DNA from: Candidatus Omnitrophota bacterium
GTDB taxonomy: Bacteria; Omnitrophota; Gorgyraeia; Zapsychrales; Aceulaceae
DNA length: 64,000 nucleotides
Reading direction: 5' to 3'
Assembly (NCBI GenBank): GCA_029564765.1
Contig: JAKQPK010000050.1
Span: 82,977-146,976, forward strand
Positions 2,503-33,252 of this stretch are shown one piece after another. The first letter of the stretch is position 1. Every line of letters begins with the position of its first letter. The position numbers were made by a program, and so were the translations under genes. Under the pieces are notes generated by a model, which ran no database searches, was not told the origin of the DNA, and worked only from the letters and a program-made list of their open reading frames with translations.

Positions 2503-2526
2503 AATGAACTCCTAAGTTTAATAATG

Positions 2527-2901: not shown

Positions 2902-2971
2902 ATCATTCCCCTTTTTCTTTTATCCTAAAATAACACGCGTCCTCTATGATGGCAATAAAAATAAGCCTTTG

Positions 2972-11287: not shown

Positions 11288-11420
11288 TAAATTCTAATAT
11301 TCCTCCTAAACGACTAAACAACAAGCTTCATCGCCTTTTTCTTACCCTACCATTTGTTTCTAGCAAACTTAAACTCATCAGGTCTCTGAGATCAAAAAGA
11401 TTGCGCATCAAGGATGCTTG

Positions 11421-12728
11421 CTAGAGGAAAAACTTACGTATCCGGCCTTCCTGCTCTTGGGTCACGGGGCCGACTAACGCGAAGTTATATCTTTGGATCT
11501 GAAAAAAATCTCGGGCCACTTTTTGCACATCGGTAAGCGTGACCTGCTCGATTTTCTTGATCATTGCGCGAAATGTCTCGACCTTATCCGTCGCCACGAT
11601 CGACTCCCCGATCCAAAACATATGTTCTGCCGTATCTTCTAAGCCCAACAAGGTCTGGCCGATCACATAATCCTTGGCACGTGTCAATTCGCTTGACGAA
11701 ACTGCTGTCCGGCTGATCCTGGCAAGCTCCTTAAGAATAACGTCCACGGCTTCGACGACTTTTTCATTATGAACACCGCCACGGACCACAAAAGCCCCTG
11801 TATCCTTGAACAACTTCATCCCTGAAGATATCGAGTAAGCTAATCCTCTTTTTTCTCTTACTTCATTAAAAAGACGACTCGACATGTTGCCGCCTAAAAT
11901 AACATTCAAAACTCCTGCCGCGTAACGATCCGGATGCTGACGATGAAGCCCCAAGGACCCCAAGGCGATATGCATCTGCTCGATCGCTTTTGGGAAGATC
12001 TTTATTTTTGGTTTTTGCTGCTGATTCGTTGCCGGGGCGCATGCAATATCACGCTCTTGCGTAAGAGGGCTGAATTTTTTGCTTGTCAACCGCCGTAATT
12101 TTTCATGCGAAATATTTCCACAAGCGGATACCACGATATTTGAAGGCACATAAAAATAGCGATGAAACTGACGCAGATCATGATAGCTCATCTGGCCCAC
12201 AGATTCCAAATTCCCAGCGATGTTCTGCCCCAGAGGATGCTGCGTCCACAGCAACCCTTCCAAGAAATCCATGACCAAATGCTGCGGCAGATCATGATAC
12301 ATCTTGATCTCTTCTAAAATGACACCACGCTCTTTGTTGACATCTTTTTTGCTGATCACAGGCTGTAAGATCATGTCCGACAAGATGTCAAATGTTTTCT
12401 GGGCGTGCCGGGTTGGCACTTTCGCAAAATAACAGGTGCATTCTTCAGAGGTAAAAGCATTAAGAGACCCGCCAACGCCCTCGATCTCTTCTTTGATCGC
12501 GCGGCAAGAATAATTCTTTGTACCCTTAAAAACAATATGCTCTAAAAAATGAGCCGCGCCTTTGATCCTGGCCTCCTCATACCGACCGCCCACGCCAGCC
12601 CAAACGCCGATCGCCACACTATCCCGATCTTTCATCGTATGGCTGATAATACGCAATTTATTGTTCAGTTCTGATCGTTCATACATAGCGCGATAGACTC
12701 CTAACGAATTTTGCCACACAAGCGACAA
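11421..12728 (-). CDS. M16-family zinc peptidase (insulinase-like)
   Basis: Inverted HxxEH zinc motif (AAHFLEHIVFKG). 435 aa. Confidence 0.85.
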   Translation of the reverse strand: MSLVWQNSLGVYRAMYERSELNNKLRIISHTMKDRDSVAIGVWAGVGGRYEEARIKGAAHFLEHIVFKGTKNYSCRAIKEEIEGVGGSLNAFTSEECTCYFAKVPTRHAQKTFDILSDMILQPVISKKDVNKERGVILEEIKMYHDLPQHLVMDFLEGLLWTQHPLGQNIAGNLESVGQMSYHDLRQFHRYFYVPSNIVVSACGNISHEKLRRLTSKKFSPLTQERDIACAPATNQQQKPKIKIFPKAIEQMHIALGSLGLHRQHPDRYAAGVLNVILGGNMSSRLFNEVREKRGLAYSISSGMKLFKDTGAFVVRGGVHNEKVVEAVDVILKELARISRTAVSSSELTRAKDYVIGQTLLGLEDTAEHMFWIGESIVATDKVETFRAMIKKIEQVTLTDVQKVARDFFQIQRYNFALVGPVTQEQEGRIRKFFL

Positions 12729-13470
12729 GATTCTTTTTGTTTTTATTTTTTAGAATCTCTTTCACGATCGCGCTACCAACGATCACGCCGTCGGCGTACC
12801 GCGCGATTTCCCTTACTTGTGCCGGCGTGGAAATACCAAAACCGACACATATTGGCTTTGTGCTTTTGCGCTGAAACGCTTTTAACGCTGCCCTTAAAGC
12901 CTTAGGTAATGCAGTCCGTGCCCCGGTAACTCCCGCAACCGAAACGTAATAAATAAAACCTGTTGAACTTTTGTTAATCAAGGCAACGCGTGTGAAATCG
13001 GTTGTCGGTGCTAAAAAGAAAATGGTTGCTAAATTCACGCGGCGCGCTTGCGCGATCAGGGTCTTGGCTTCTTCCGGTGGTAAATCCGGAATAATGAGAC
13101 CATCCACACCCGCGCGAACAGCTTGCGCAACAAACTCCTTTTCCCCAAAATGAAAAACCGGATTATAGTAGGTCATCAGGCAAATCGGGAGTTCGGTCGT
13201 CGCGCGTAAACGCTTAACGAGCGCGAGGATCTTTTTTAAAGTCACACCCTGAGCTATCGCACGCTGCGACGCTGCCTGGATCGTCGGGCCATCGGCTAAA
13301 GGATCCGAGAACGGAACGCCCAGCTCCACGATATCCACGCCAGATCTTTCAAAAGCCAGGACCAATTTTTCTGTTGTTGTCAGGTCCGGATCACCGGCTG
13401 TGATAAAGGCAATGAAGGCCTTCTTTTTGTTTCTTTTAAGTTGAGAAAATTTTTGATCGATACGGTTCAT
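12679..13470 (-). CDS. trpA: tryptophan synthase alpha chain
   Basis: 263 aa with typical TrpA sequence (…GVDIVELGVPFSDPLADGP…). Confidence 0.9.
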   Translation of the reverse strand: MNRIDQKFSQLKRNKKKAFIAFITAGDPDLTTTEKLVLAFERSGVDIVELGVPFSDPLADGPTIQAASQRAIAQGVTLKKILALVKRLRATTELPICLMTYYNPVFHFGEKEFVAQAVRAGVDGLIIPDLPPEEAKTLIAQARRVNLATIFFLAPTTDFTRVALINKSSTGFIYYVSVAGVTGARTALPKALRAALKAFQRKSTKPICVGFGISTPAQVREIARYADGVIVGSAIVKEILKNKNKKNLVACVAKFVRSLSRYV

Positions 13471-13477
13471 AAATTTA

Positions 13478-13694
13478 ATTCAAAAGTCAAAATTCAAAAG
13501 TCAAAACGAAAAGATTTCAGAAGCTAAAATTCAAAAGTATGAAGATTTTTTGAGCTTAAAAACGCAACGAATGCAATGGGCTCAATGAACTAAAATTATA
13601 TCTCATTCTACGCTTTAATACACAATGTTTTGATTTTTGGTTTAATAAATCAACCTTCTGCTTTGAATTTTTATTTTTGAATCTTGACTTTAAA
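13478..13694. repeat. MITE-like intercistronic palindromic element, family 1, copy A
   Basis: The terminal inverted repeats are built from tandem units: the left end reads AAGTCAAAATTCAAAAGTCAAAA and the right end TTTTGAATCTTGACTT. The right end is identical to that of copy C. It fills the trpB-trpA gap. Confidence 0.55.
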
Positions 13695-14868
13695 TAATGT
13701 CCTTTATTGACTGCACATCCTTGTCCCCTCGCCCGGAAAGACACACGATCACGGTCGAATTCTTTTTAGCACGCTTAGCAAGTTTTTCCAAATAACCGAT
13801 CGCGTGCGAGGATTCCATCGCGGGGATAATCCCTTCGGTCTTGCACAAAAGCTTCATCCCGGCAATAGCTTCCTTGTCATCGACAGCAACATATTCCGCA
13901 CGCTTGATCTTTTTGTAATAAGAATGTTCTGGCCCAACGCCTGGATAATCCAGCCCCGCGGCGATCGAATGCGCCACCCGCACCTGGCCGTCACTATCTT
14001 GTAACAGATCGCTCTTGCTGCCATGAAGGACACCGGCTGTCCCACGATTCAACGGCGCGGAATGCTTGAGCGTATCAAGCCCTAGACCTGCCGCTTCCAC
14101 ACCGATCATCTTTACGTTCTTATCCGAGAAAAACGCGTGAAAAAGCCCCATCGAATTACTGCCGCCGCCAACGCACGCCAAAAGATAGTCCGGCAAACGT
14201 TTTTCTGCCTGCGCAAACTGCCTCTTGGCTTCTTGTCCGATCACAGATTGGAATTCACGCACCATCACGGGATAAGGATGTGGCCCAGCCACAGAACCGA
14301 TCACATAAAATGTGTTCGCCACATTCGTTACCCAATCACGGATCGCTTCGTTCATTGCGTCTTTTAAGGTCTTTGAACCGCTTGTGACAGGAACAACCCT
14401 GGCTCCTAAGAGTTTCATACGGTAAACATTCAACGATTGACGCTCAATATCTTCCGCGCCCATATAAATATCGCAGCGAAGCCCAAAAAGCGCTGCCACT
14501 GTCGCGGTCGCCACGCCATGCTGGCCGGCACCGGTCTCCGCGATGATCCGCGTCTTGCCCATACGCTTGGCGATCAGGATCTGACCTAAGGTATTGTTGA
14601 TCTTGTGGGATCCGGTATGCAAAAGATCTTCACGTTTAAGATAAACCTTGAGTGTCTTCAGTTGCGCGCTTAAGCGCTTGGCCAGATAAAGATTGGTCGG
14701 CCTGCCGGCGTATTCCTGCAAATAAAAGCGAAATTCTCGCTGGAATGCTGCGTCTTTGCGCAGGCGAACGAACACGCGCTCAAGATCCGCCAAAAGCGTC
14801 ATGAGCGTTTCTGGTACATAACGCCCGCCGAACTCATCAAAATGGCCAAATTTATCGGGTTTTGTCAT
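13690..14868 (-). CDS. trpB: tryptophan synthase beta chain
   Basis: 392 aa. PLP-Lys context (HTGSHKINN) and GGGSN motif. Confidence 0.9.
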
Positions 14869-14880
14869 ATATAGTTTAAA

Positions 14881-14954
14881 GGGTTAAAGGATTTGAGGAT
14901 TTGAGGATTAAAGGGCTCTCCCTTTTCCCCTATAATCCTTTACCCCTCTACCCC
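14881..14954. repeat. long imperfect hairpin built from tandem AAAGGATT/TGAGGATT units, family 2, minimal copy
   Basis: Left arm GGGTTAAAGGATTTGAGGATTTGAGGATTAAAGGG, loop CTCTC, and a right arm that is its reverse complement. It lies between the stop of ORF 14954..15745 and the trpB start. Confidence 0.5.
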
Positions 14955-15745
14955 TACTTTTTCTTATATTCCGTCATGATCATACTTGTGCCGCCGATCA
15001 TCGCAGGCTTGTCAATGCGCAACGGTAATCGATCTGGGCTGTCGTCGAACCAAAGCCGATATTGCGAAGGCACGGTTTCAAGAAAAAAGGTTTGAAAATC
15101 TTTACCAGCCACGGATAGTGGCATCTTTTTAGCGATCCTGACCGACACATCCTTTGTCGGTAGATTCATCCGCAAAGATGATCCTAAGCGAAAACTGCCT
15201 TTCAACCGATACCGATAAATAAAACAATAGATATTATCAATCTTATCTTCTTTGGTCAATACAAGAACCTGCGGTTGCGGCTTGGCCTTTGTTGTTTTCG
15301 TAATTGTCACCGTATGCTGATCCTGATCGTAAACTTCAACGATCTTTTCGATCGACCCAAAAATATTCAGATCTCTTTCGATGCGCAACGGAAAGAACTC
15401 CTCATGATCCGCGTAGATCTTTTCGGCGTCTAGAAAGTTCGATCCTTGAGCCTGAAAAAGGATCAGATAAGCTTCCCGCCCATCGATCGTAGTCCGGCCC
15501 TGCAATGTCATAGTCGCATCGGCCTGCTTAACGCCAAGGCCGCGCACATCATAGCGGATCGTTTCGCCGATAAAACGGCCATAGCCTGCGTCCTGGGCAA
15601 AGGCAAAACTTGGGCTAAAAAAAACCAAAAAGCAAGATATAAGGCACAAGCAGGCCAGAAAATACAACCTCCAAAGACCAAAGACTTCTCTTGGCTTGGT
15701 CATTGCTTGGTTGTTGCCTACTGTATCTTGATCATTCATTTCCAT
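14954..15745 (-). CDS. hypothetical membrane or secreted protein
   Basis: 263 aa with an N-terminal hydrophobic segment. No confident family assignment. Confidence 0.5.
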   Translation of the reverse strand: MEMNDQDTVGNNQAMTKPREVFGLWRLYFLACLCLISCFLVFFSPSFAFAQDAGYGRFIGETIRYDVRGLGVKQADATMTLQGRTTIDGREAYLILFQAQGSNFLDAEKIYADHEEFFPLRIERDLNIFGSIEKIVEVYDQDQHTVTITKTTKAKPQPQVLVLTKEDKIDNIYCFIYRYRLKGSFRLGSSLRMNLPTKDVSVRIAKKMPLSVAGKDFQTFFLETVPSQYRLWFDDSPDRLPLRIDKPAMIGGTSMIMTEYKKK

Positions 15746-16866
15746 TCTTTCACAAATCTCTCCAACACCTTTGCGCCCTTATACAGCTTCTCAACATGCG
15801 CGTATTCATCGGTCGCATGCGCGGTTTTGCGGCTGCCATAGCCTGTGGCGATCGCCGGGATCTTTTTCTTCTGGAAAAATGTGATCACAGTAGCGCCCTG
15901 ACTGCCCTTAAGCTCCACAGGACATTTGAGCGCGCGGCAGGCGTTGACATAGGTCGAAACCAGCGGATGCTGTTTATCGATCTCATAGGGGTATTGCAGG
16001 TCATCTATGATAATTTTAAAACGTTTCGCGTGTTTTCGTACCAAAGCCTTGATGGCGACCAAAAGTTTCTGCGGGTCCATACCCGGTAAAAATCTCAGGT
16101 CAAAGGAAAGCTCACAGAAATCCGCGACCATATTTACCTTGTCCCCGCCCTTGATCGTCCCAATGTTGATCGTTGGCGGACGTAAAAGCGCATGAGGGTG
16201 ATAAACAAATTTAAAGTTCTTTAATTCTTCAATAATGCCTGTGGCTGCTTCGATCGCGTTTACGCCGTACCACTTGTAAGCGCCGTGCGCTTTCTTGCCA
16301 AAAACTTGAACTCGGGCGTGCATCAAGCCTTTTTGGGCGATGATCGTTGAAAATTCATCAGAATCCAAGATCAAAGCGGCCTTCGGCTTCAGCATCCCTT
16401 TATTGAGCAACGGAACGATCCCCTGTTTGCTGCCAGTCTCCTCATCTACCGTCGCGGCCAAGACCACATCATGCGAAAGTCGAACACCGTCCTCGACTAA
16501 GCTGCGCATCGCCTCCATCGCGCAGGCGAGATTTCCTTTATCGTCCGTGGCCCCTCGACCATAAATACGGCCATTTTTAATTTGCCCGCCAAAAGGATTC
16601 ATGGACCATCCTGTACCTGCGGGAACGGTATCAATGTGCGGTGTCAACAAAAGCGCGTTCTTTGCTGACGCTTTAGATGTCCCTTTTAAAGTCGCGATAA
16701 TGTTGGGACGATCCTTCGCGAAGGTCACGACCTTGACTGCAAGGCCCAAGGAGCGCATATCACGCTCGATAAAACGTGCAAGTGCAAGTTCATTGCCCGG
16801 CGGATTCTCTGAATTAAACCGCAGAACTTTTTGGGTCAACTTAATAAGGCGAGATTTGTTGATCAT
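15736..16866 (-). CDS. M20-family metallopeptidase (ArgE/DapE-like deacylase)
   Basis: 376 aa. It has conserved metal-binding His and Asp residues and the GRGATDDKG motif typical of M20 peptidases. Confidence 0.8.
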   Translation of the reverse strand: MINKSRLIKLTQKVLRFNSENPPGNELALARFIERDMRSLGLAVKVVTFAKDRPNIIATLKGTSKASAKNALLLTPHIDTVPAGTGWSMNPFGGQIKNGRIYGRGATDDKGNLACAMEAMRSLVEDGVRLSHDVVLAATVDEETGSKQGIVPLLNKGMLKPKAALILDSDEFSTIIAQKGLMHARVQVFGKKAHGAYKWYGVNAIEAATGIIEELKNFKFVYHPHALLRPPTINIGTIKGGDKVNMVADFCELSFDLRFLPGMDPQKLLVAIKALVRKHAKRFKIIIDDLQYPYEIDKQHPLVSTYVNACRALKCPVELKGSQGATVITFFQKKKIPAIATGYGSRKTAHATDEYAHVEKLYKGAKVLERFVKEWK

Positions 16867-16867
16867 G

Positions 16868-17138
16868 ATAAGTCAAAATTCAAAAGTCAAAAGTTTAGGA
16901 TTGAACAACAAAAATCAAAACTCAAAAATTTAAGATTAAAATCAGAATGCAAAAACTAAAACAACGGTACCAGAATTCATGCTGATAGCTAAAAAATTTT
17001 TTATAGGATTTCTTGAATATACTTGCCTGATTCTTTTTATTTCAGGGTTCTTGATATGCTGTACTTTTAATTTTTGACTTTAAAAAATCAGCCCTGTGGT
17101 CTTTAATTTTGACCTTTGAATTTTGAATCTTGACTTAT
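16868..17138. repeat. MITE-like intercistronic palindromic element, family 1, copy C
   Basis: About 26-bp TIRs: ATAAGTCAAAATTCAAAAGTCAAAAGT on the left and the reverse complement of ATAAGTCAAGATTCAAAATTCAAAGG on the right. It exactly fills the gap between the stop codon of ORF 17139..17444 and the start codon of the M20 gene. Confidence 0.6.
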
Positions 17139-17444
17139 CTAGTCCTTAAATAAATCCTCAGCCCGCAAAGCGCCCGTGGCTTTCTTATAGTCATCATAAT
17201 CTAGAACGCACATGCCTGGATTTTGCTCAATGATCCTGATGATCTTTGGCATATTACCTATCAAGCTGCGAAAGGTGATATATTTAAACGGTGTTTTACA
17301 TTCCGGGCAGACGGTAGAATCAAGCTTTAAGCCCATAGCATTACACTTAGAGCAATTGGCGGTCAGATCGCCGCACAAAAGCGCGTGGCTTTTGACCTCT
17401 TCCACATAAAATTTTTTATAAATTCTAATCACTTTATCGTTCAT
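17139..17444 (-). CDS. small zinc-ribbon protein (two CxxC pairs)
   Basis: 101 aa with CSKC…CPEC. No known family. Confidence 0.5.
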   Translation of the reverse strand: MNDKVIRIYKKFYVEEVKSHALLCGDLTANCSKCNAMGLKLDSTVCPECKTPFKYITFRSLIGNMPKIIRIIEQNPGMCVLDYDDYKKATGALRAEDLFKD

Positions 17445-17476
17445 AGATGAAAAATTATAACATAAAATATATTAAG

Positions 17477-17612
17477 TTGTAAGCTGTAAGTTATAAGTTG
17501 TCCGTTGCCAGCAAAAAGGGCCCCGCAGAAATCCTGCGGGGCCCTTCTCACACCCCTATCATTGACATCTTACATCTGACACCTTACATCTTATGCCTTC
17601 TATATCTTACAA
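17477..17612. repeat. palindromic element built from tandem GTAAG/CTTAC units that flank a central terminator hairpin
   Basis: Left arm TTGTAAGCTGTAAGTTATAAGTTGT. Right arm CATCTTACATCTGACACCTTACATCTTA…CTTACAAC, which overlaps the stop of the giant gene. Confidence 0.45.
17511..17544 (-). terminator. rho-independent terminator of the giant gene
   Basis: On the minus strand an 11-bp GC-rich stem (GGGCCCCGCAG/CTGCGGGGCCC) with a 5-nt loop is followed by TTTTTGC. It lies about 65 nt after the stop at 17607. Confidence 0.7.
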
Positions 17613-26600: not shown

Positions 26601-27326
26601 ATTTAGTGGTTGGTTTTTACTAGATACTACATACTCTCGACTATCGACTCGTTGCTTTGCTTGCAAAGCAACGTAATCTTCTTCCATCACGACGGCCAAT
26701 TCGCTGTCAACAACAAAAACCCTATTGTTGTTCTCGTAAACTGTTGCTTTTTTAGGAAGGATCCAGATCTTGTTGAACGTGTCGATCGGGATGTCGGTAG
26801 TTCCGTATTTCTCGTAAGCTGCCTTGTAAACCTTTTCCCAGAACTTTTTGCCAAGCTCGTCTTCCGGGTATATTAAGGAAGCAGTAAGCTGCTTTAAGAT
26901 ATAATCCTGAGCTAAAAGATCTCGACCCATCTGGGTCTGACCAAAGCCTTCCGGGATAATACGATCTTTTTCATAAGGCGAAAGGTTGACCCACATGTCT
27001 TTTTCAGGAGTTGTCAAGGAGGCTAAAAAGTAGCGGATCAGCTTCTTGGCTTCTTCGGTCAAGGCCTCGCCTTCCATGGCTGTATCACCGCTATCTACGA
27101 TAAACCCAAAATGAAAAGGATTACCGGGGTCAATCTCGATCGCTCGTAACAAAACAGGATAAAAACTTGCTGTTGGCGCAAGCATCGTGCTTGGCGCCGA
27201 AAGCCCTGCAGATAGGCCCTGGGCGTAGCTGGGAGCAATAGAGGTAAAAAGAAAGCTGAGAGTGATAAGAACAGAGATGATCTTTGACGCGAATCTTCTT
27301 TGGGCTTTGTTACCGCAGGCGATCAT
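17607..27326 (-). CDS. giant secreted multidomain protein (3239 aa) with an internal UDPGP-family nucleotidyltransferase domain
   Basis: One uninterrupted ORF with an AAGGAG SD 8 nt upstream. The N-terminus is a Sec signal peptide (…SFLFTSIAPSYA/QG). The internal motifs MNGGAGTSVG, SPGGHG and ITNGDGPNN match UDP-glucose pyrophosphorylase hallmarks. The rest has no assignable domains. Confidence 0.85.
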   Translation of the reverse strand: MIACGNKAQRRFASKIISVLITLSFLFTSIAPSYAQGLSAGLSAPSTMLAPTASFYPVLLRAIEIDPGNPFHFGFIVDSGDTAMEGEALTEEAKKLIRYFLASLTTPEKDMWVNLSPYEKDRIIPEGFGQTQMGRDLLAQDYILKQLTASLIYPEDELGKKFWEKVYKAAYEKYGTTDIPIDTFNKIWILPKKATVYENNNRVFVVDSELAVVMEEDYVALQAKQRVDSREYVVSSKNQPLNTSDQILTTSSLSSQIVREIVLPAIEKEVNFGKHFASLRQVYYAMILATWYKNNLKESLLGKIYMDQNKIKGIDLVDSSEKQKIYEDYLNAFQKGIYDFIKVERDQHTGKNIPRKYFSGGFTPTTPDGTPLRQALEKVTPSADKLQTKGSATRFDAKLLKSEDDNRSSASAIEAPGHDAGWSALEAIARQYGGDYVYVYAEYDTGGWSGRHRSEMQSTFLDDKPERKVARIKVYYDENGNKQIVLTRIDRNRWNIEVKWGTGVSASAIISRVSSLEPASVLLREITSKLELTGKVLLSFNILTEEGYSYGFSLSDPQASGRLSVILPKAKKVTMFFKDRTSLIFAKDTANSRWKITQFYGQGFNFKDEGARWNELGGSINVPKFRANVDLKEMATEIVAENMALRLTSDDIKQTEFYRPNSKSLMAEKIASIPQDAREPLTVKMFIRDGYVVLHRAKKADFWEFVSQGMPLAEDKEEAVSSSIRTISKEEIDPFVKKLGMDNPGSTFNRDYFASLVSQYNQQMVDKQKGIVNDLVIGQNFFPNSMIPKSKMKEIMNATDFATEILSQEKKYLEAAKNVDHRIDFMNGGAGTSVGGVGAKSMALTFVQELQGFDKDGNPKVFKDVEFSILDVKYVHNIITAQEGRVAHASIRELVSKDTVGPISDFRNQHICLLDKIDDRIPEGQKRTYAQYVRGLQGIRFDEDMVVQAIQPVVDVVTGELTDRKTSPGGHGVFGRMAFEEVLTDILPEDKVVIRDITNGDGPNNQIPSVVLGWMASNKIPMVLLSSTTMELDKKGGKVGAQPVEDGLLLQDLTAENTRINMMETVQAGKVGQGELFQKIGLTAGAIEEAGQEGEQFFNTNIMGINETVLQPFLRELEKIIGHEQYVQWTSPTFIDNPKEGGTIYQIEGALGHVLQNLDYHVRYTENQKVKDLMKKYGWTRLLHIVNFTPEYRELCFTPVKFALDWNYYLSEHFAMDTKEWAMKNNKPGHLARFEFSKNYEDYYQKNKVNAYKILPLGSKTLDLDLLYVAGKWTLNKPEYIGTVELRNDTDQEINLDELLSKAKYQHYFDKGILKRGSDGHLILDNVTIVYVGVDIDGSGTDLLVAPTQSVSSTLASIPATTGREVAAVLIKEYQADPYFISGTDQDGNIKPFITAVWHAESQQLSESEKEYYGLDFRDYYYGWSETELPVTMHAFDQNGQIFLRLSENGKMYRSYDQKSKHKRMSSSLAVIKRAAGTLNAHEAIMALRKGIPHKTWSVEWNDSSYLEHEPGFTEFFSEKNLGSGQRLIVKFWEQNRNSPLTQIMIDQYDLFLSITALRFVWNDKKQNFDAVSEDNIARKAKEIIEKMPTSSASSSVITRQQLISPITRIMQDERSDVGTMGVKLRSGGYQRVSVTNPKAPWQDLDLREPVASIRLELGNGTSYYLNVRYEGKRAIIDANKVRTTFSQTETVAARIAPILMDKRNFRLGSSRDRESYLKVVSGSQEKNWQAVDQISANFSKERAVQKIKDLSAREKAVFIDIEQHSILEKDKIDQWLSRPGKPLAYQIRFQDGSYIYLVSKDLSYRDPVVSVTPKAAEVKSVVSEKRGYWPSDSAKIQRDVEEIISIIGREEKMETIKIFNPAMLYDANKLKLKDAIDRFKEKFSMLVTQKLEGIVLTFRTYSIEISVSKSTQQIIHVHVKDKQGMRLPGFDRSKLSSENVFSTALEKKEVPAVTYIDGVPSGEPAQRTLGLERYLEEKPVVSEVSKTASAKRGFLPSGSAKIQRDVKELLSVFDRNAKLQTIEIRNFNNSFRSYNALLGAQIADAVDAFRERFGDTISTMQFEIEDFRIIVSFEEFTRKVTEVSVFDKKFREHEKAVLQRYILSAENFLSTAPEEKRAEVKSETSKPETEIPYDADIVSRKERVSFKGAKFDVQEFSKRILDATKGKLLIDTGLDFDWRKNVIFSFSSQNKMDYRAMHKPAKNVSYMIVLRQVEDEMIEIEAEFQNSAGEMNHDEGLLRLATDILKSMSQEPGVVDAPQATAPAKLSELMPGEFRHQLLEFLDQLGVRELRAVNIFDGVSFYYFYSTKQIRESREEVAHALDGLVQEKSDMQSIEILWTANRVVIDLERGEVVGVRPGFATLGAGQEDIDRIRQNLPAGHFLSMARSEPLDETPTAMSQKASDVIEDLFRDFSNTIENYLGTDEIIYSPRLGEGNFGGFNGLITIKFTKTYERFKPYWVVSFERQPDGSVEIRAKSAPVYGATPNEDLELLELAKQTIVPDLGRFLSENFSSTVKIENNEEIVKSESSTGKRNIKDFKLTEISNDLRVFLEKLGEKIGLRTLDFKIGYYAVARQFDYAASRTSDPEAVDFSISSELNKNMGNIHFLVQQGKVVKIETIDLRLKDQVAAVLSELSEDNFLKTASSSSLSKKAPIGASSGVKAVLPENFSIEELANTLQKEISADRVSFNYVDIDGGSSGNLSAMDAQRVTFRNPKTRQISLQFHYNDRVWGDVLRFKLENGSVVVDAYQAMDLGDELNIPDQKFLAQALSVLKAMDAVTTSSGSSEKSTSPFAFDGVQSTIIKSLPTASILDAVMAVEDVMGEKVESFLWNGLDYDLDGSDIFHQNLVDTDSPMDNSLLFTFDAQEGKELNVVILTDTEKGVSIAVRKTEQGEGDKGFLVRNRGERQEDVEVKIKEKLEVVSSSLTRKDFFAVIDHMVDLAREEGYELVKLVPDKNENVIDEYADLDSFKDELTQITDEDNINKDVNGVLLVFYNSKQDDHEQAHVLFYQNISGLMTVRVSHPNSIRKEFRIAGLNQHRSITSLDFLLKTITTSDKMLENVISIIKQFSVVKTDNVTLATKLRDDLKMTSVEIARMIVDINSRLLPNHAQIIPKESMEIQEYDEVNIGDIYNFVLEKQRKSSSNLGGISMDSKTLDLQIKRDGNGIPLPISQQPPELMNIQGFTFEIMGITPVASLFLLSGLDAGTPSNKVRGSDNRELIGRPAEPALPAEEYAQVGLL
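20900..21860 (-). repeat. two tandem ~160-aa intragenic repeats inside the giant gene
   Basis: Repeat 1 reads …KRGYWPSDSAKIQRDVEEIISII… and repeat 2 reads …KRGFLPSGSAKIQRDVKELLSVF…. The DNA copies are about 480 nt apart. Confidence 0.6.
23400..24880 (-). other. UDP-sugar pyrophosphorylase-like (UDPGP, PF01704-type) domain inside the giant protein
   Basis: These motifs correspond to the LNGGLGTSMG, PPGHGD and NIDNLGA motifs of eukaryotic-type UGPase. The domain is encoded at roughly aa 810-1300 of the giant protein. Confidence 0.6.
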
Positions 27327-27480
27327 GAAACTTCTCCTTTTTTAACAACTTGTTAGGATAAAAATTGGTCAATATACGTACTCAAAGGCTAAAAGAGCAA
27401 GCCTTAAACCTTTTTTCCGTGGCAGGAATTTAGAACAAAATTAGATAAGAAAGCGGTTTCTTTTGGGAAAATATAGCACA

Positions 27481-27921
27481 TTTTTATAAATTTTCAAGGT
27501 CAGCTTATGTACGGGAGGGCTTGCGGACCTCTATCAAAGAAAGGAGTGCTTTTAAATGATCACGACTTACGAAGGCCTTGGCCGAGATCAAATCAGCCCA
27601 CGCGAATTTATTCCGCCAAAAGCGGAGGCACGAAATCAGGATAATCGTATTAGTATTTTTGGACTCCTCACAAAAAGATTGCTCGGAGTGTTTTTTCTTG
27701 GCTAAGTTAAAATAAGAAGGAAGAAAAAATAAGAAAGAGCCGACAAAGTATGTCCACTTCGGCAACCCAGCCACCGTCTTGTCATCCACTGCGGCCCAAC
27801 CGGCCCTTGAGGTAGCCCCAGCACCACTCCGGGTGCGGGACGCAAGCTGCTTCAGACAACTTAGGTCTGTGGTTTTGCGCCCCCGGGTTTCCCCGGGTTT
27901 GCCTTTATCGGCTCATTTGAG
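27481..27921. other. unexplained structured non-coding segment flanked by 11-bp direct repeats (AATATAGCACA); candidate ncRNA, long leader or small insertion
   Basis: The direct repeats lie at 27469-27479 and 27922-27932. A second repeat, GAAAGCGGTTTC, occurs at 27450 and 27970. The segment contains GC-rich hairpins (CCCGGGTTTCCCCGGG, GGCCCAACCGGCC). The only in-frame material is a 49-codon plus-strand ORF (27555-27701) preceded by an AAGGAG motif and a spurious 94-aa minus-strand ORF. Confidence 0.25.
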
Positions 27922-27990
27922 AATATAGCACAGAAAAGATCGATAACAAGGGGTGAAAAGGGGCTTCGGGAAAGCGGTTTCAAAATATGA

Positions 27991-28191
27991 AAAAAGGATT
28001 AAAGGATTAGAGGGCTAAAGAGTTAGAAAGGTAAAAACTTTAAGGAGAAACCAAAATACGAAAATTATAAAAACAAAGTTTCCGCTTAAAGTTTAAGCCG
28101 ATGATTCTCAATTCTTTTTTTCTTGCTATTTTCAAATCTCCTAAAGCCCTTTAACCCTTCAATCCTCTAACCCTTTAATCCTAAAACTTTA
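27991..28191. repeat. palindromic element, family 2, long copy (arms of AAAGGATT/AGAGGGCT units flanking a ~90-nt core)
   Basis: Left arm AAAAAGGATTAAAGGATTAGAGGGCTAAAGAGTTAGAAAGG. Right arm CCTAAAGCCCTTTAACCCTTCAATCCTCTAACCCTTTAATCCT, which is its reverse complement. The right arm overlaps the last codons of the exonuclease gene. Confidence 0.5.
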
Positions 28192-28849
28192 AATAATTCT
28201 CCCAATACAAGTACAGCTCTTTGGTTGCCTGTAGGTCACGCGCGCAATACCTCGCAATGTCATGGAATGCGCCTTTGAGAAAAAACTCTTTAACTTGCAG
28301 TCCTGTGATCCCCTCTTCTTTGGGGCTTTTGATACCGAAGGCTTTGCACCACATGTCCAAGCTGAAGCGGCGACGCATCGCATCATAAAAGGTCAACTGA
28401 TCGCAAAGGTCAACATGCAGCTTCGCGTCATAGCGATACGGCACAAGATTCTTGGTCGCGCGAACATTGTTGATGGCTGAGCGCAACATGATAAAAGGAC
28501 AATCGAAGGTTCGTCCATTAAAAGTGATAAAAACATTGGCCTTTTCGATCAATTTCCAAAAATGCATCAGGATCTCTTTTTCATCCCCGGAAACATAAGT
28601 GATGTCCCCTTCCTGGAATTTTTCTTTCTTGCCATCATTCTGGAAGAAGACAAAACTCTTATTCGTCTCCACGTCCAGCATGCCGATCGTGATCACTTGG
28701 GCTGTCACAGGGTAGAAGCTCATACTATTTTTTACATCCTCGATCTTCTGCTCGCTGTCAGCGAACTTCAAGAAATATTCTTTTGAGACCTCATCCAAGC
28801 TGTCAAAATCCTGCCCTGCAGTTTCAATGTCAAAAACGATCTTAGACAT
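28181..28849 (-). CDS. RNase H-like superfamily 3'-5' exonuclease (DEDD/PolB-exonuclease-like, YprB-type)
   Basis: 222 aa. The N-terminal IVFDIETAG motif is an Exo I-like motif, and …YCARD… near the C-terminus looks like an Exo III motif. Confidence 0.65.
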   Translation of the reverse strand: MSKIVFDIETAGQDFDSLDEVSKEYFLKFADSEQKIEDVKNSMSFYPVTAQVITIGMLDVETNKSFVFFQNDGKKEKFQEGDITYVSGDEKEILMHFWKLIEKANVFITFNGRTFDCPFIMLRSAINNVRATKNLVPYRYDAKLHVDLCDQLTFYDAMRRRFSLDMWCKAFGIKSPKEEGITGLQVKEFFLKGAFHDIARYCARDLQATKELYLYWENYLKF

Positions 28850-28876
28850 AAAAGCTCCTTAATAAAGATTTGGAAT

Positions 28877-29003
28877 GCAAATAAAATGACTCAATGACCA
28901 AGCTCGAATGTCGAATCAATATCTCAAATCCTAATATTTCAATTGGGCATTGAATCATTGGGGTTTCATTCGTCATTAGGATTTCGTCATTGGTCATTGC
29001 GCT
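28877..29003. repeat. palindromic element, family 3 (arms of AATGAC/CAATGA units)
   Basis: Left arm AATGACTCAATGACCAAGCTCGAATGTCGAATCAAT. Right arm CATTCGTCATTAGGATTTCGTCATTGGTCATTG. It lies between the trpF stop and the exonuclease start. Confidence 0.45.
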
Positions 29004-29617
29004 TCACCTTTTTGCTTCTTTAAAAATTTTCTCATTAAGCGCAGACATTTCTTTCCCGGACGCCGCTCTACTCCGCTGGAAACATCATAGGCATAAATAT
29101 TCTTAAGTTTTACAGCTTCAACAATGTTCTCTGGATTCAAGCCGCCGGACAAGATGATCTTCTGTTTCTTAAGTGCAGATTCTTGCAAGATGTCCCAATC
29201 AAAAACTTTCCCTGTTCCCCCGTGCACGCCTTTAAGATACGTATCGAACAACAAAAATGAAGTCTTATACCGCAAAGCTCTTGCAACATCCTGCTTGTGC
29301 TTGACACAGATCGCTTTGATCGTGATGACCTTCTTTATCTTAGAACAAAAAGCGGGTGTCTCATTGCCATGTAACTGAACTACTCTTAGACCACATTGCG
29401 CGACAATGGCTTGGATGTTCTTGAGCGATTCATTAACAAAAACGCCTACCGGCAGAACGGATCGAGGAAGGGACGCGATAATTCTTTTGGCAGTATTCGG
29501 ATCAATATATCGAGGACTTTTACGATAAAAAATAAAACCCAGCGCCCAAGCGCCAAGACGGTGCGCCCTGTGCGCGTCTTCCTTGTTTGTAATACCGCAA
29601 ATCTTAATTCTCGCCAT
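28994..29617 (-). CDS. trpF: phosphoribosylanthranilate isomerase
   Basis: 207 aa with a typical PRAI sequence (ARIKICGIT…). Confidence 0.85.
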   Translation of the reverse strand: MARIKICGITNKEDAHRAHRLGAWALGFIFYRKSPRYIDPNTAKRIIASLPRSVLPVGVFVNESLKNIQAIVAQCGLRVVQLHGNETPAFCSKIKKVITIKAICVKHKQDVARALRYKTSFLLFDTYLKGVHGGTGKVFDWDILQESALKKQKIILSGGLNPENIVEAVKLKNIYAYDVSSGVERRPGKKCLRLMRKFLKKQKGEAQ

Positions 29618-30395
29618 ACATTACTTCCCTTACCTTGGCGCCAACATCATGTGCGCGCAAAAAAGTCTCGCCGATCAACACCGCGTGAGCGCCCAACTGC
29701 TGAAGTTTCCGAATCTGTGTCTGATCCTTGATCCCGCTTTCAGCGACGATCGTGATCCCTTGTGGGATAGACGGAATCAGCTTTTCGCAGGTTGCAAAAT
29801 CAACGTCCAAAGTTCTTAAATTTCGATTATTGACCCCGATGATCTTGGCTCCGCTATTGATGGCGCGCTGAAGTTCTTTCTCGTCATGGACCTCGACTAA
29901 AGCATCCATGCCTAAGCCGTGAGCGGTCTCAAGAAGCTGTTGTAGATTTTTATCCGTAAGGATGGCAACGATCAACAGCACCGCGCTACTGCCGAACGAA
30001 AAGGTTTCAAAGATCTGCACCTCGTCAATGATAAAATCCTTGGTCAAAACAGGCAAGCTTACATGCTCAGCCACCTCACGCACATACGGCGGCTTACCTA
30101 AAAAATACTTATCTTCGGTCAAAACAGAAATGGCAGCTGCGCCAGCTTTCTGATAGGCATACGCTAGATCCAACACGCTAAAATCACCACGTATAACCCC
30201 TTGAGATGGTGAAGCCTTTTTGATCTCAGCGATAAGATTTAGCTGGCCCGGTTTTGATATGGCTTTCTGGAATACGTGATACGCTGTATGCTTGTCATTC
30301 TTATTCTTTGCCTTAAGCTCCTGTAGGAAGACTTTCTTCTTTTCGATCAGGCCTTGTTTGTAAACGATGATATCTTTTAGGAAATCTTTTGTCAT
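29604..30395 (-). CDS. trpC: indole-3-glycerol phosphate synthase
   Basis: 263 aa with a TIM-barrel IGPS sequence. It overlaps trpF by 14 nt and trpD by 4 nt. Confidence 0.9.
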   Translation of the reverse strand: MTKDFLKDIIVYKQGLIEKKKVFLQELKAKNKNDKHTAYHVFQKAISKPGQLNLIAEIKKASPSQGVIRGDFSVLDLAYAYQKAGAAAISVLTEDKYFLGKPPYVREVAEHVSLPVLTKDFIIDEVQIFETFSFGSSAVLLIVAILTDKNLQQLLETAHGLGMDALVEVHDEKELQRAINSGAKIIGVNNRNLRTLDVDFATCEKLIPSIPQGITIVAESGIKDQTQIRKLQQLGAHAVLIGETFLRAHDVGAKVREVMYGEN

Positions 30396-31399
30396 TGATT
30401 AGTGAACGCGATCAAGGAATCAAGTTTTTCTTTGGCTTTTTTTGTATCGACCGATTGGCAGGCTGCCTCTATGCCCTTATGAACTGTTGGAGTTCTGCCA
30501 GCAATATACAACGCGTAAGCGGCATTTAAAATAACGATATCTCTTTGGGCGCCAGTCTGACCGCTTAGAACATCAGAAATGATCTGCGCGTTGGTTTCAG
30601 CGCTTCCCCCCTTAAGGTCTTGAGGAAGAGCTCTTGGAATACCGTAAAAAGATGGATCGATCTCATATGAAATGATGTCTTGGCCATTATATTCGCTAGC
30701 AAATGTCTTGGCAGTGGTCGTGATCTCATCTAAGCCATCCTCTCCATGCACCACCAAGGCTTTCTTTAATCCCAGGTTCTGCAAGACATGCGCCATGGGC
30801 TCAACCAATTCCTTGTTGTAAACGCCCATCATCTGATGCGTAGCTTTAGACGGATTCGTCAGAGGCCCCAAAACATTAAAGATCGTCTCAACCCCTAGTT
30901 CTTTGCGAACCGCGGCCGCGTAACGCATCGCCGGATGTAAATTTTGCGCGAATAAGAAAGCGATGCCCACCTGATGCAGGCAATCCGATAAACGCTCGAC
31001 TTTCATGCCAACGTTGACACCCAGATACTCAAGCACATCCGCGCTACCACATTTACTGGAAACGGAACGGTTACCATGCTTGGCCACTACGCAGCCAGCG
31101 CCAGCGACCACGAAAGCGACGGCGGTCGATATATTGAACGTGCCGGCCCTGTCACCTCCAGTGCCACAGGTGTCAAGAACGACATCCTTATCTGTATCCA
31201 CTGCGATCGCGAACTCTCGCATGATACGCGCTGCGCCGGTGATCTCATTGACCGCGGCCCCTTTCTTACGCAACGCTAAAAGAAACGCGCTAAGCTCCTC
31301 TTTCGGCACTGTTCCGGTCATGATACGTCGCATTACATCAGACATCTCTTGGGCGGTGAGGTCATGATGTTGCTGGATCTTGTCGATATACTCTTGCAT
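30392..31399 (-). CDS. trpD: anthranilate phosphoribosyltransferase
   Basis: 335 aa with the GTGGD motif. Confidence 0.9.
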   Translation of the reverse strand: MQEYIDKIQQHHDLTAQEMSDVMRRIMTGTVPKEELSAFLLALRKKGAAVNEITGAARIMREFAIAVDTDKDVVLDTCGTGGDRAGTFNISTAVAFVVAGAGCVVAKHGNRSVSSKCGSADVLEYLGVNVGMKVERLSDCLHQVGIAFLFAQNLHPAMRYAAAVRKELGVETIFNVLGPLTNPSKATHQMMGVYNKELVEPMAHVLQNLGLKKALVVHGEDGLDEITTTAKTFASEYNGQDIISYEIDPSFYGIPRALPQDLKGGSAETNAQIISDVLSGQTGAQRDIVILNAAYALYIAGRTPTVHKGIEAACQSVDTKKAKEKLDSLIAFTNQ

Positions 31400-31412
31400 A
31401 CAGATAGAAAAT

Positions 31413-31985
31413 TTATTTAGGGTTTAAGATTAAAAAATTCTGGAGCAACTTTTTGCCTTCTTTGGTCAAAATAGACTCCGGATGAAATTGAACACCCCAA
31501 AGCGGATATTGCTTGTGGCGAACGCCCATGATCTCTTTGTCTTGGGTCCAGGCGATGATCTCTAAGCAATCCGGTAATGTCTTCTGTTCGATCACTAGGG
31601 AATGATAGCGTGTCGCTTCAAAAGGATTGGAGAGGCCTTTGAAAATTTCTTTTTTATTGTGATAGATCAAGGAGGTTTTTCCGTGCATAAGTTTTTTCGC
31701 GCCGATGATGCTCCCGCCATAGGCATAGCCAATGGCCTGATGGCCTAAGCAAACCCCTAAGATCGGGATCTGACCGGCAAATTCTCGTATTAACGCAACA
31801 GATATACCTGCATCCTCTGGCCGTCCCGGCCCAGGAGAGACAACGATACGTTCCGGCCGCATGCTTTTGATATCATCGATCGTGATGGCATCGTTGCGAA
31901 AAACCTCAACATCCGCTTTCAATTCAGCCAGGTACTGGACGAGATTATAGGTAAAGGAATCATAATTATCCAGCATGAGGATCAT
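31413..31985 (-). CDS. trpG: anthranilate synthase component II / glutamine amidotransferase (TrpG/PabA)
   Basis: Class I GATase with catalytic Cys in GVCLGHQ. The likely start is MILMLDNYD, so the tracked ORF 31413..32018 is trimmed to avoid an overlap with murA. Confidence 0.85.
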
Positions 31986-31986
31986 G

Positions 31987-33249
31987 TCACACTTTTTTCC
32001 TTGAGATCTTTGCGCCAATGTTCAAAAGTTTTTTCTCGAGGTCCTCATACCCACGCTCCAGATGATAGATGCGGTGGATCTCCGTCAGGCCTTTCGCGGT
32101 CAAACCAGCAATGACAAGAGCGGCCGATGCTCTGAGATCTGAAGCCATAACCGGGGCTCCGTGTAAGGTTTTGACACCCTGAACGATCGCATGTAAGCCT
32201 TCCCGGCGGATATTAGCCCCCATACGGTCAAGCTCAGCAATATGCATGAACCGATCAGGATAGACACGGTCTGTGATAACGCTCACGCCGGGTGTCGTTG
32301 CCATCAAAGCCATGAATTGGGCTTGGAGGTCTGTTGGAAATCCTGGATAAGGATACGTATTGATACTGGCCGGGGTTATGGTCCGGCGATTGATCACGCG
32401 GATCACATCATCAGTATACTCAAAGCGGACCCCTATGGACTCTAAGACATCGATCAATGACAACAAATGCCCATGATACGCGTCACGGATCGTCAAGTCG
32501 CTGCGCGTGGCTACGGACATCAGTATGAAGGTCCCTGCTTCGATACGATCCGCAATAATGCTATGATCTGCCCCTAAAAGTTCCTTAACCCCGCGGATAA
32601 TAATGCGCGGTGTTCCATGCCCGATCACATGAGCACCCATGCGCACTAAAAAATTTCCTAGATCCTCGATCTCAGGCTCGCAGGCTGCTGATTCGATGAT
32701 CGTCTCACCATTGGCCAGAACAGCCGCCATCATTACATTGGCCGTTGCCAGGACTGATGACCCAAAGACCCCTCCTAAATAAATACGCGCTCCCCGCAGG
32801 CGCTTAGCTTTAGCGACAATATATCCCGCGTCCGTTGTCATCTCAGCGCCTAAAGCCTTTAAGCCTTTGACATGAAGGTCAACAGGGCGAATACCGATCA
32901 CGCAGCCTCCGGGCAAAGAAACACGGGCCCGGCGAAGTTTACCTAAAAGAGGCCCTAAGACACAAAACGATCCTCGCATGGTGGACACTAGATCATACGG
33001 CGCAGTATCTTTGATCGGCCCTTTCCCCAAGACAACAAGTTTTCCTTTTTCATAACGCGTGACCTTACCTAAAGACTCCAGAAGCTTGATCATGGTCAAT
33101 GTGTCACGCAATTTGGGCACATTATGGATCGTGCACGGCTGATCCGTTAAAAGGGTGGCCGCCATAATAGGCAGAGCCGAATTCTTTGCCCCGCTGATAC
33201 GAACTTCCCCAGATAAACGTCTTCCCCCTTCGATCACAAGCTTATCCAT
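31987..33249 (-). CDS. murA: UDP-N-acetylglucosamine 1-carboxyvinyltransferase
   Basis: 420 aa with a typical MurA/EPT fold sequence. Confidence 0.9.
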
Positions 33250-33252
33250 AGA

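Follow-up and report, generated by a model that had tools for sequence, protein, structure and literature searches.

An interrupted tryptophan gene cluster common to one Omnitrophota clade, with a c-di-GMP-I riboswitch in the gap

The stretch considered here, referred to as the window, is a 64-kb segment of contig JAKQPK010000050.1 of a Candidatus Omnitrophota bacterium, in which the genes of tryptophan biosynthesis lie in two groups, trpG-trpD-trpC-trpF and trpB-trpA, separated by a block of non-trp genes that includes one giant gene. The question raised by this locus is whether the block was inserted recently into an intact trpGDCFBA operon of this genome, or whether the interrupted order has been inherited as such. 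The first-pass annotation of this DNA had put forward two possibilities, the insertion of an accessory block and an unusual operon in which the trp genes are read through from housekeeping genes. The comparison with related loci makes it likely that the locus is a vertically inherited, anciently rearranged trp cluster of one Omnitrophota clade and not a recent island. The main interest of the locus is in the gap itself, which harbors a conserved, possibly orphan, cyclic di-GMP (c-di-GMP) riboswitch and, adjoining it, a variable slot for large secreted proteins. To our knowledge, very few examples of orphan riboswitch RNAs are known.

Gene order of the split cluster and its distribution

Coordinates are positions of the window unless another locus is named with them, and the bit scores of genes are from NCBIfam and Pfam profile scans of the open reading frames (ORFs) of the window; the features are listed in Table 1. 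The minus strand carries nearly all ORFs, and the order on this strand is prfA-prmC-murA-trpG-trpD-trpC-trpF-exo222-giant gene-Znr101-M20-DUF3108-trpB-trpA-M16. The order prmC-murA-trpG-trpD-trpC-trpF and the separate trpBA pair, which had previously been read from the letters and the translations, are borne out by the NCBIfam scans, and because the trp profile matches are strong and full length (237 to 622 bits), the trp genes look intact. The non-trp sequence from the trpF stop to the trpB start (14869-28993) amounts to 14,125 bp, which corrects an earlier figure of 15.3 kb in which trpB had been counted in. The trpGDCF genes are enclosed by murA and exo222 and the trpB-trpA pair by DUF3108 and M16, and the same split arrangement is present in 13 related loci. 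This is not a whole-pathway trpEGDCFBA operon of seven contiguous, co-directional genes, given the gap and the absence of trpE.

The distribution of this order is derived from tblastn comparisons of the window proteins with two sets of 80 loci each, genome loci retrieved through TrpF and metagenome loci retrieved through exo222, to which loci found via homologues of the giant protein were added. The closest relatives in the GTDB species representatives and in the metagenomes are Candidatus Omnitrophota, and one of the syntenic loci (L168) encodes a protein that NCBI assigns to 'Candidatus Aceula lacicola'. The interrupted order is found in 14 distinct loci (the window, L002, L003, L004, L005, L082, L083, L085, L086, L089, L162, L163, L167 and L168), whose proteins are 38% to 99% identical to those of the window. 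The backbone that they have in common consists of (rho-L31-)prfA-prmC-murA-trpG-trpD-trpC-trpF-exo222, the riboswitch, a variable part, Znr101-M20-(147 aa)-DUF3108, a second variable part, and trpB-trpA-M16. The exo222 orthologues in the same position are 59-97% identical, and the 70+ homologues of exo222 outside the clade are not located beside trp genes.

Four other Omnitrophota loci (L008, L016, L038 and L042; in the last at 2506-5477) have the uninterrupted order hisD-hisB-hisA-hisI-trpE-G-D-C-F-B-A-M16, and trpE is found directly upstream of trpG in 35 of the fetched loci. In neighbor-joining trees of TrpD+TrpC and of TrpB+TrpA, the split loci form one clade, which is sister to the Omnitrophota with contiguous trp genes, and the trees of the two halves are congruent. 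Since the sister Omnitrophota keep the trp genes contiguous, the interrupted state would be the derived one, and since the interruption is common to one whole clade, it would be an old rearrangement. Accordingly, we regard the split, together with the murA-trpG junction and the disappearance of trpE from this place, as synapomorphies of a single clade, in which both halves have been passed on jointly. The idea that an accessory block had been inserted into an ancestral trpGDCFBA operon is therefore retained as far as the derived state is concerned, but not as a recent, single insertion. Relatives with the same interrupted order and conserved intervening genes, which according to the first-pass annotation would argue for an ancestral organization, are indeed found, as the 14 loci demonstrate.

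It has nevertheless to be considered whether a palindrome-bounded island of ~15 kb was acquired horizontally and inserted, recently, into an intact trpGDCFBA operon of this genome. Such an event would fit the observation that all large intergenic spacers and hairpins of the window cluster in this region, that a pair of related hairpins, one at 14.9 kb and one at 28.1 kb, encloses 13.2 kb, and that the GC content at third codon positions (GC3) of the giant gene is slightly low (0.45 versus about 0.50). Against it, 13 other loci have the same intervening genes, with protein identities as low as 38-60%, and the 28.1-kb hairpin is missing in relatives in which the riboswitch and the giant gene are already present. 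The foreign composition by which the block was to be told from its flanks is not seen either, because GC, GC3 and codon usage are host-like: the GC content of the block genes (0.41-0.49) is close to that of the other window genes (0.38-0.51), and their codon distances fall among those of host genes of comparable length. The 64-kb window contains no tRNA gene, no long direct repeats flank the block, and no integrase-type family turned up among the window ORFs scanned with NCBIfam and Pfam. The block does not have the make-up of a mobile element, its ORFs belonging to the PolB-exonuclease, M20 and DUF3108 families or being without a match, and presence/absence polymorphism is not observed, the block backbone being present in 14 of 14 clade loci, with variation confined to the hairpins and to the cargo that follows the riboswitch. 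A recent island is very improbable, and for practical purposes this reading is already refuted. Moreover, the block is not one 15-kb unit but is layered, being a stack of exo222, a promoter-riboswitch-terminator unit, the giant-gene cassette, and Znr101-M20-DUF3108 joined to trpBA.

Misassembly is also unlikely. The source is a metagenome assembly, and the sequence identity between the window and L162 is a mosaic, as could be expected if a chimeric contig, generated by assembly or binning, joined two genomes within the trp operon. However, an identical TrpF is encoded on thirteen contigs, 12 of which have mostly the same neighboring proteins, the same order occurs in independent assemblies (ENA, JGI, NCBI and Logan), and both halves give congruent trees, such that the probability of a chimeric contig is negligible.

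The riboswitch unit and the variable slot downstream of it

Between exo222 and the giant gene there is a c-di-GMP-I (GEMM-I) riboswitch, which had been overlooked in the first-pass annotation. The Rfam match at 27757-27912 on the minus strand is to RF03167 (61.7 bits, E 3.7e-12, gathering score 59), the orthologous aptamers score 36-71 bits with RF01051 (gathering score 35), and a custom covariance model (R1) gives 110-164 bits in 13 related loci, with the duplicates L084 and L164 counted. All split loci except L085 (13 of 14) have the aptamer at this position, each time with an insertion of ~80 nt in its second hairpin, and it was found neither in the contiguous-trp Omnitrophota nor beside the exo222 homologues outside the clade. 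The conserved core is AAAGGYAAACC...ACRCAAARCC...GGGUUGCCGA, and compensatory double changes are observed in 7 of the 24 predicted pairs, in what is a small alignment of 8 orthologues with related sequences. The label of 'GGC variant' was rejected as a specificity claim, because in the Rfam alignment the window aptamer has an A where the GGC-variant consensus has a G; with the canonical A at this diagnostic position, the aptamer probably has the canonical specificity for c-di-GMP.

The aptamer is preceded, by a few nucleotides, by a promoter-like site (P1), and the sigma-70-like arrangement of this site (TTGnnn, ~17 nt, TGnTATAnT) is present in all nine orthologues examined as well as in L167 and L168. 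In the same loci, the outer stem (GCCGA/AUCGGC) and the U-run of the terminator-like hairpin T1 are kept, while its inner stems vary. The 5' arm of T1 is the 3' strand of the aptamer, GCCGAAG, and its 3' arm is also complementary to AGCCGAUAAAG at the 5' side of the aptamer. Since these aptamer strands are needed for ligand binding, the ligand-bound aptamer and T1 would be mutually exclusive, which suggests that the T1 platform has the logic of an ON-switch. After exo222, P1, the aptamer and T1 would form a self-contained unit. A second hairpin with a U-run (T2) follows within about 100 nt of T1 in 7 of the 14 orthologues (L003, L004, L005, L086, L089, L167 and L168).

The content of the slot downstream of the riboswitch differs by relative. 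In the window, it is the giant gene (3239 aa), the predicted product of which has an N-terminal hydrophobic signal/transmembrane (TM) segment, as read by eye from the sequence, and would be a giant secreted or membrane protein. Giant genes follow the riboswitch also in L162 (2969 aa), L168 (2769 aa), L089 (2641 aa), L167 (2397 aa) and L163 (1908 aa), for which reason the view that only this genome had gained a giant gene was dropped. The slot contains a gene for an FG-GAP protein of >1116 aa in L004, a small Cys-rich ORF in L002 (11866-12180), and a small Cys-rich ORF (10934-11329) followed by an M48 peptidase gene in L086. There is no ORF ahead of Znr101 in L003 and L083, and in L083 an S8 subtilase gene is located upstream of the riboswitch. 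The Cys-rich ORFs of the cargo-poor loci L002 and L086 have, by eye, the motif C..CG.CCG....GD.CEHL, and the copy of L086 is without a Pfam family.

The giant protein belongs to a family of long proteins, with at least 1208 homologues, which are mostly Omnitrophota proteins of 1.8-5.3 thousand amino acids (kaa), 42-64% identical over 10-15% of the query; the two closest among the matches listed have 76% identity over 33% and 72% over 13% of the query. Only the first ~350 aa are common to the homologues, many of which carry embedded enzyme domains (PGM, UDPGP, PGK and starch synthase). A UDP-glucose pyrophosphorylase-like motif, FMNGGAGTSVGGVGAKS, is seen by eye in the giant protein of the window, where Pfam gives no match. 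Further genes of this family are located directly after M16 in L167 (18890 onward) and in tandem in L169 (1-12723), and the family thus clusters near the trp locus and next to one another.

It appears that the giant gene may be a cassette with its own promoter-like box, a conserved 5' untranslated region (UTR) and a strong terminator, which would evolve by kb-scale gain and loss of modules. The promoter-like site P2 and the ~145-nt 5' UTR of the giant gene (together 27327-27497) are conserved in the window, L162 and L163, and L167 and L168 have a similar TATGCTATATT box and a CGCCACGGAAAAA motif before the giant gene. The same terminator hairpin is found after the giant gene of L162, and analogous GC hairpins with a U-run occur in L163, L089, L167 and L168. 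When the window is compared with L162, prfA, prmC and the 5' part of murA are 99-100% identical, whereas the giant genes differ by several kb-scale insertions or deletions; the aptamer is 95-97% identical while the neighboring sequence is a mosaic. The leader insertion of ~210 nt (27500-27719) is absent in L162, and an unrelated sequence of ~50 nt is in its place in L163.

What the riboswitch acts on may be considered in several ways. One tentative possibility is that it is a stand-alone small RNA gene at a syntenic position, an orphan without a cis target, to which the trp split is incidental, comparable to the merRNA of the predator Bdellovibrio, which provides a precedent (PMC3627812). This would be in agreement with the conservation of its own promoter-like site and T1 in all orthologues, with the tandem T2 hairpins, with the near identity of the aptamer to that of L162, and with the finding that the downstream gene differs by locus and usually has its own promoter-like box. 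On the other hand, there is no clear T2 in the window, L162 and L163, where read-through into the giant gene is possible, a competing terminator is costly for an RNA without a downstream target, and the T2-like hairpins could have been left behind by cargo genes that are now lost. We would also propose, with reservation, a somewhat wider scheme, in which the aptamer, flanked by a promoter of its own and by one or two terminators, forms a separate small RNA gene that has stayed at a fixed place within the split cluster, and in which genes of large secreted or effector-type proteins (1.9-3.2 kaa giants, FG-GAP, M48) have landed repeatedly at the site just downstream of it; the RNA might then act as a c-di-GMP buffer or trans RNA like the Bdellovibrio merRNA, or it might add c-di-GMP-dependent read-through to constitutive promoters. 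The presence of a conserved c-di-GMP riboswitch beside members of the long-protein family would give a handle on when such proteins are expressed.

A protein with GAF and HD_5/HD domains is encoded ~2-3.4 kb past the window start on the same contig (L165, 12766-14217). Proteins of this type are often HD-GYP c-di-GMP phosphodiesterases, and this identity, if true, would fit a working c-di-GMP system here.

The two trp halves and their proposed operons

Where a single his-trp operon is found in the sister group, this locus would comprise three transcription units and one small RNA unit. At the head of the left unit are the housekeeping genes prfA and prmC, the prfA stop and the prmC start overlapping by 4 nt. 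The spacer between the murA stop (TGA, 31989-31987) and the trpG start (ATG, 31985-31983) is exactly 1 nt, as read from the sequence and in agreement with the gene calls of the source contig, and an AAGGA is located 13-17 nt upstream of the trpG ATG, within murA. This agrees with the spacing of 1-2 nt given before, and the absence of a trp leader or attenuator before trpG is borne out as well: Rfam detects no trp leader, T-box or other regulator near murA/trpG, and the c-di-GMP riboswitch is the only family to reach its gathering score anywhere in the window, or E<=1 within 27300-33400. With a spacer of 1 nt and no leader or T-box, it is very likely that trpGDCF is transcribed by read-through from murA. 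The trpGDCF genes, of which trpD, trpC and trpF have overlapping stop and start codons, would ride on the prfA-prmC-murA operon, with trpG translationally coupled to murA via the 1-nt spacer. Because there is no tryptophan-specific leader, control by tryptophan, if any, must act elsewhere or in trans. The proposal that the trp genes are read from housekeeping genes is thus very likely correct for murA into trpG, but read-through of the whole block is unlikely, in view of the conserved terminator-like hairpins.

The sister-group trpE gene and the his genes that precede it would no longer be at the left unit. The tblastn search with ten ORFs from just upstream of trpG in relatives (nine TrpE and the MurA of L002) gives no TrpE match with E < 0.01 in the window, there are no his genes in the window, and no chorismate-binding or his genes are found in the 10 kb past either window end, so that the absence of trpE from the locus, as noted before, extends across ~81 kb of the 293-kb contig. 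As trpE, G, D, A and B are reported in 174-176 of 176 complete Omnitrophota genomes (bioRxiv 10.64898/2026.06.07.730766), it is more likely that the trpE of this genome has been relocated than that it has been lost. In an Endomicrobia locus (L064, 125-6598) the order is prmC-murA-hisDBAI-trpEGDCF; the murA-trpG junction could therefore stem from the removal of the his-trpE segment, as is suggested by this one locus of another phylum.

The protein identity of TrpF to that of L162 is 63%, and trpF with the following spacer (28850-28993) has ~45-67% nucleotide identity to L162 (trpF ~64%), whereas the flanking genes have 90-100%; a patch of murA (32033-32482) is 79% identical. It looks as if the trpF allele may have been replaced through recombination with a divergent lineage. 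In L086, which is basal in the split clade, a radical SAM/SPASM gene (8806-9807) is located where trpF belongs, and trpF was not detected anywhere in the 20 kb of this locus. Further lineage-specific insertions are found in L163, where an ankyrin gene separates trpG from trpD, and in L085, where a trypsin-TPR gene separates murA from trpG and an unassigned gene of 235 aa separates trpC from trpF; L002 and L085 have PD40 and DUF4325 genes upstream of trpB. Given these insertions at several junctions, the backbone appears to have been repeatedly tolerant of insertion at gene boundaries.

The right unit begins with Znr101, which is 38-90% identical in 7 relatives and has four invariant cysteines (alignment A4), and M20 and DUF3108 are conserved in every relative whose locus covers them. 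M16 is also located 3' of trpA in the contiguous-trp loci L008, L016, L038 and L042. In L167, the genes Znr101, M20, DUF3108, trpB, trpA and M16 overlap or abut, and they are 0-40 nt apart in L168 and L086. Znr101 and M20 overlap or are 1 nt apart in L167, L168, L086, L002 and L085, the DUF3108-trpB junction is a 4-nt overlap in L167, 16 nt in L168 and 0 nt in L086, and trpB and trpA abut or overlap in L167 and L086. From this tight packing, it is most likely that trpBA is expressed as part of a Znr101-to-M16 operon. The promoter-like site P3 would drive Znr101-M20-DUF3108-trpB-trpA-M16 in the window, and a TGYTATAAT box is located ahead of Znr101 in L083, L003, L002, L085, L163, L167 and L168. 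The corresponding window junctions are filled by hairpins, with spacers of 272 nt (Znr101-M20), 85 nt (DUF3108-trpB) and 219 nt (trpB-trpA).

The coupling of these genes raises the further possibility of a functional supraoperon, in which Znr101, M20 and DUF3108 would join or co-regulate the last steps of tryptophan synthesis and in which the riboswitch, by ligand-dependent read-through of T1, would govern a unit to which trpBA and, in the loci that have it, the large secreted protein belong. This would explain why the Znr101-M20-DUF3108-trpB-trpA order is kept in every covering locus, and why it is coupled or tightly spaced in L167, L168 and L086. It is also in agreement with the classical ON-switch logic of T1, with the lack of an ORF between the riboswitch and Znr101 in L003 and L083, and with the fact that GEMM-I riboswitches commonly precede genes of surface or secreted proteins. 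However, in every orthologue a promoter-like TGYTATAAT box intervenes between the riboswitch and either Znr101 or the giant gene, transcription from further upstream would meet T2 in half of the orthologues and a strong terminator at the end of the giant gene, L085 has the same operon without the riboswitch, and the family annotations tie none of the M20 ArgE/DapE, DUF3108 and zinc-ribbon proteins to tryptophan metabolism. A supraoperon of this kind is therefore rather unlikely.

Several observations weigh against an anciently split, vertically inherited cluster with the units described above. The neighbor-joining trees are based on plain distances and carry no support values. The trpE gene is not located within the ~81 kb of the contig that were read, the outgroup loci of the clade do not have murA upstream of hisD, and the origin of the murA-trpG junction is deduced from a single Endomicrobia locus. 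The right unit of the window is broken by spacers of 85-272 nt whose hairpins could terminate or process transcripts, and the tie of the riboswitch to the downstream genes is blurred by the second terminator-like hairpin in several orthologues. In addition, the promoters and terminators are all known as sequence motifs, and the promoter scan gave only slightly more sites than shuffled sequences did (38 versus 29.7 +/- 5.1).

Intergenic hairpins, known systems and neighboring features

Five of the six intergenic regions within 13.4-29.0 kb fold much better than shuffled sequences (z-scores of -2.4, -6.4, -3.2, -6.6, -5.3 and -1.3), as compared with none of the six elsewhere in the window (-1.6 to +2.3); the leader 27327-27756 has a z-score of +0.3. 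The hairpin arms are built of degenerate tandem units of 7-8 nt, with a different unit sequence in each element. Two pairs are related: the hairpin at 14869-14953 is 84% complementary to the arm at 28145-28182, and those at 13471-13689 and 16867-17138 have an exact common segment of 23 nt. Beyond this 23-nt match, no more copies of the six hairpins are found in ~81 kb of the contig, so that they are not a high-copy family locally. Most of the hairpins lack a U-run, the exception being the inner GC hairpin after the giant gene.

Palindromic elements had been described at every junction of the block, and the hairpins at the junctions are indeed real; one of them, however, is located between trpB and trpA, which is not a junction of the block. 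The 27985-28182 hairpin is absent at the orthologous site of L162, L163 and L082, the nearest relatives with the block and the riboswitch, and is thus an element specific to this genome. Relatives have similar hairpins of other unit sequences, located within this region as well as beyond it. When these findings are taken together with the spacer-free right-hand junctions of relatives, the hairpins are not insertion scars of the block. It is proposed that the tandem-unit hairpins are secondary insertions into intergenic sites of this lineage, for which RNA stabilization, RNA processing or termination are possible roles. This advises caution against taking intergenic palindromes for insertion scars.

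Split trp operons with inserted non-trp genes have been documented, as stated in Kagan et al. 2008 (PMC2395257), citing Xie et al. 2003, and as split trp operons with foreign genes are textbook, the split alone is unremarkable. The known cases are alike in having two co-directional trp sub-clusters with unrelated genes between them and a paired trpB-trpA, but the break is usually EGDC/FBA, whereas here it is GDCF/BA, with trpE gone from the locus. The insert also differs in being 14 kb long, multi-unit and clade-conserved, with a riboswitch and a giant gene, and the halves differ in being joined to other operons, with murA upstream of the one and Znr101-M20-DUF3108 and M16 around the other. 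What is new here is the break point without trpE, the size and layering of the insert, the joining of each half to another operon, and the conserved riboswitch unit in the gap. The steps would form a series, from the contiguous his-trp operon of the sister group to the GDCF/BA split, to the variable cargo and then to the invasion by hairpins, which would show how a biosynthetic operon is dismantled and rewired into neighboring housekeeping operons in small, co-directional Omnitrophota genomes.

The aptamer resembles the c-di-GMP-I riboswitches of RF01051 in scoring above the gathering score and in having the conserved core, compensatory helices, a terminator platform and a position near genes of large secreted or surface proteins. 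It differs by the ~80-nt insertion in the second hairpin, by the position in the middle of a trp cluster, by a downstream gene that is not conserved and has its own promoter-like box, and by the second terminator-like hairpin in half of the orthologues. The merRNA of Bdellovibrio bacteriovorus is an orphan c-di-GMP riboswitch RNA that has been proposed to store or sponge c-di-GMP (PMC3627812), and it is alike in being a c-di-GMP aptamer without a conserved downstream ORF in a bacterium of proposed predatory or host-dependent lifestyle. The status of merRNA is based on massive, measured expression, whereas the RNA described here is known from its sequence alone and the likeness is one of aptamer class; moreover, in the window, L162 and L163 no second terminator blocks read-through into the giant gene. 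The long proteins of Omnitrophota described previously (bioRxiv 10.1101/2023.11.21.568195; bioRxiv 10.64898/2026.06.07.730766) are comparable in the N-terminal signal/TM segment and in having homologues with sugar-metabolism and other enzyme domains, but they are of 10-147 kaa, compared with which the 3.2 kaa of the giant protein is small. In these two preprints the words riboswitch and c-di-GMP are absent, and no long-protein gene is placed in a trp cluster.

Table 1. Features of the split trp locus and its surroundings, ordered from the 5' to the 3' end of the minus strand.
Feature	Positions	Strand	Basis or description
rho	35450-36787	-	NCBIfam
prfA	34038-35102	-	NCBIfam NF001859, 485 bits
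prmC	33253-34041	-	TIGR03534, 254 bits
murA (UDP-GlcNAc 1-carboxyvinyltransferase)	31987-33249	-	TIGR01072, 535 bits
trpG (trpG/pabA-type glutamine amidotransferase, 190 aa)	31413-31985	-	TIGR00566, 264 bits; NF005799, 289 bits
trpD	30392-31399	-	TIGR01245, 402 bits
trpC	29604-30395	-	NF001377, 310 bits
trpF	28994-29617	-	NF002298, 237 bits
Hairpin, trpF-exo222, AATGAC-type tandem units	28850-28993	-	minimum free energy -29.0, z -1.3, weakest of six
exo222 (PolB-exonuclease-like/RNase H-fold protein)	28181-28849	-	PF10108, 74 bits; PF13482
Hairpin after exo222, ~190 nt, arms of AAGGRTTW-type 8-nt units	27985-28182	-	z -5.3
Promoter-like site P1, TTGTTA-16-TATATT with TG, just upstream of aptamer	27922-27949	-	promoter scan
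c-di-GMP-I (GEMM-I) riboswitch aptamer, ~80-nt insertion in second hairpin	27751-27919	-	Rfam RF03167
Putative terminator T1, hairpin GCCGAAG...UUUGUCGGC with U-rich tail	27724-27763	-	5' arm is the aptamer 3' end
Leader insertion, ~210 nt, between T1 and P2, without strong structure	27500-27719	-	alignment, blastn breakpoints
Promoter-like site P2, TTGAAA-16-TATATT with TG	27470-27497	-	promoter scan
Giant gene, 3239 aa	17607-27326	-	no Pfam match
Putative intrinsic terminator of giant gene, 11-bp GC stem GGGCCCCGCAG/CUGCGGGGCCC, then U5	17513-17548	-	folding
Hairpin region, between giant gene and Znr101	17445-17606	-	one of six
Promoter-like site P3, CTTACA-18-TATAAT with TG, upstream of Znr101	17454-17483	-	promoter scan
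Znr101 (101-aa zinc-ribbon protein, CxxC...CPxC)	17139-17444	-	alignment
Hairpin, Znr101-M20, TCAAAAG/TCAAAAT units	16867-17138	-	z -3.2
M20 (ArgE/DapE-family deacylase)	15736-16866	-	TIGR01910, 262 bits
DUF3108 protein	14954-15745	-	PF11306, 40.8 bits
Hairpin, DUF3108-trpB, AAGGRTTW units	14869-14953	-	z -6.4
trpB	13690-14868	-	TIGR00263, 622 bits
Hairpin, trpB-trpA, 219 nt	13471-13689	-	folding
trpA	12679-13470	-	TIGR00262, 293 bits
M16 (peptidase gene, 3' of trpA)	11421-12728	-	profile scan

On the 5' side, prfA is separated from rho by one ORF, which is called L31 on the source contig, and on the 3' side M16 is followed by rsfS and argS. Among the very few plus-strand ORFs of the window is one of 189 aa (10718-11287), with spacers of 433 nt and 134 nt on either side; this ORF, Znr101 and the giant gene are without any Pfam or NCBIfam family match.

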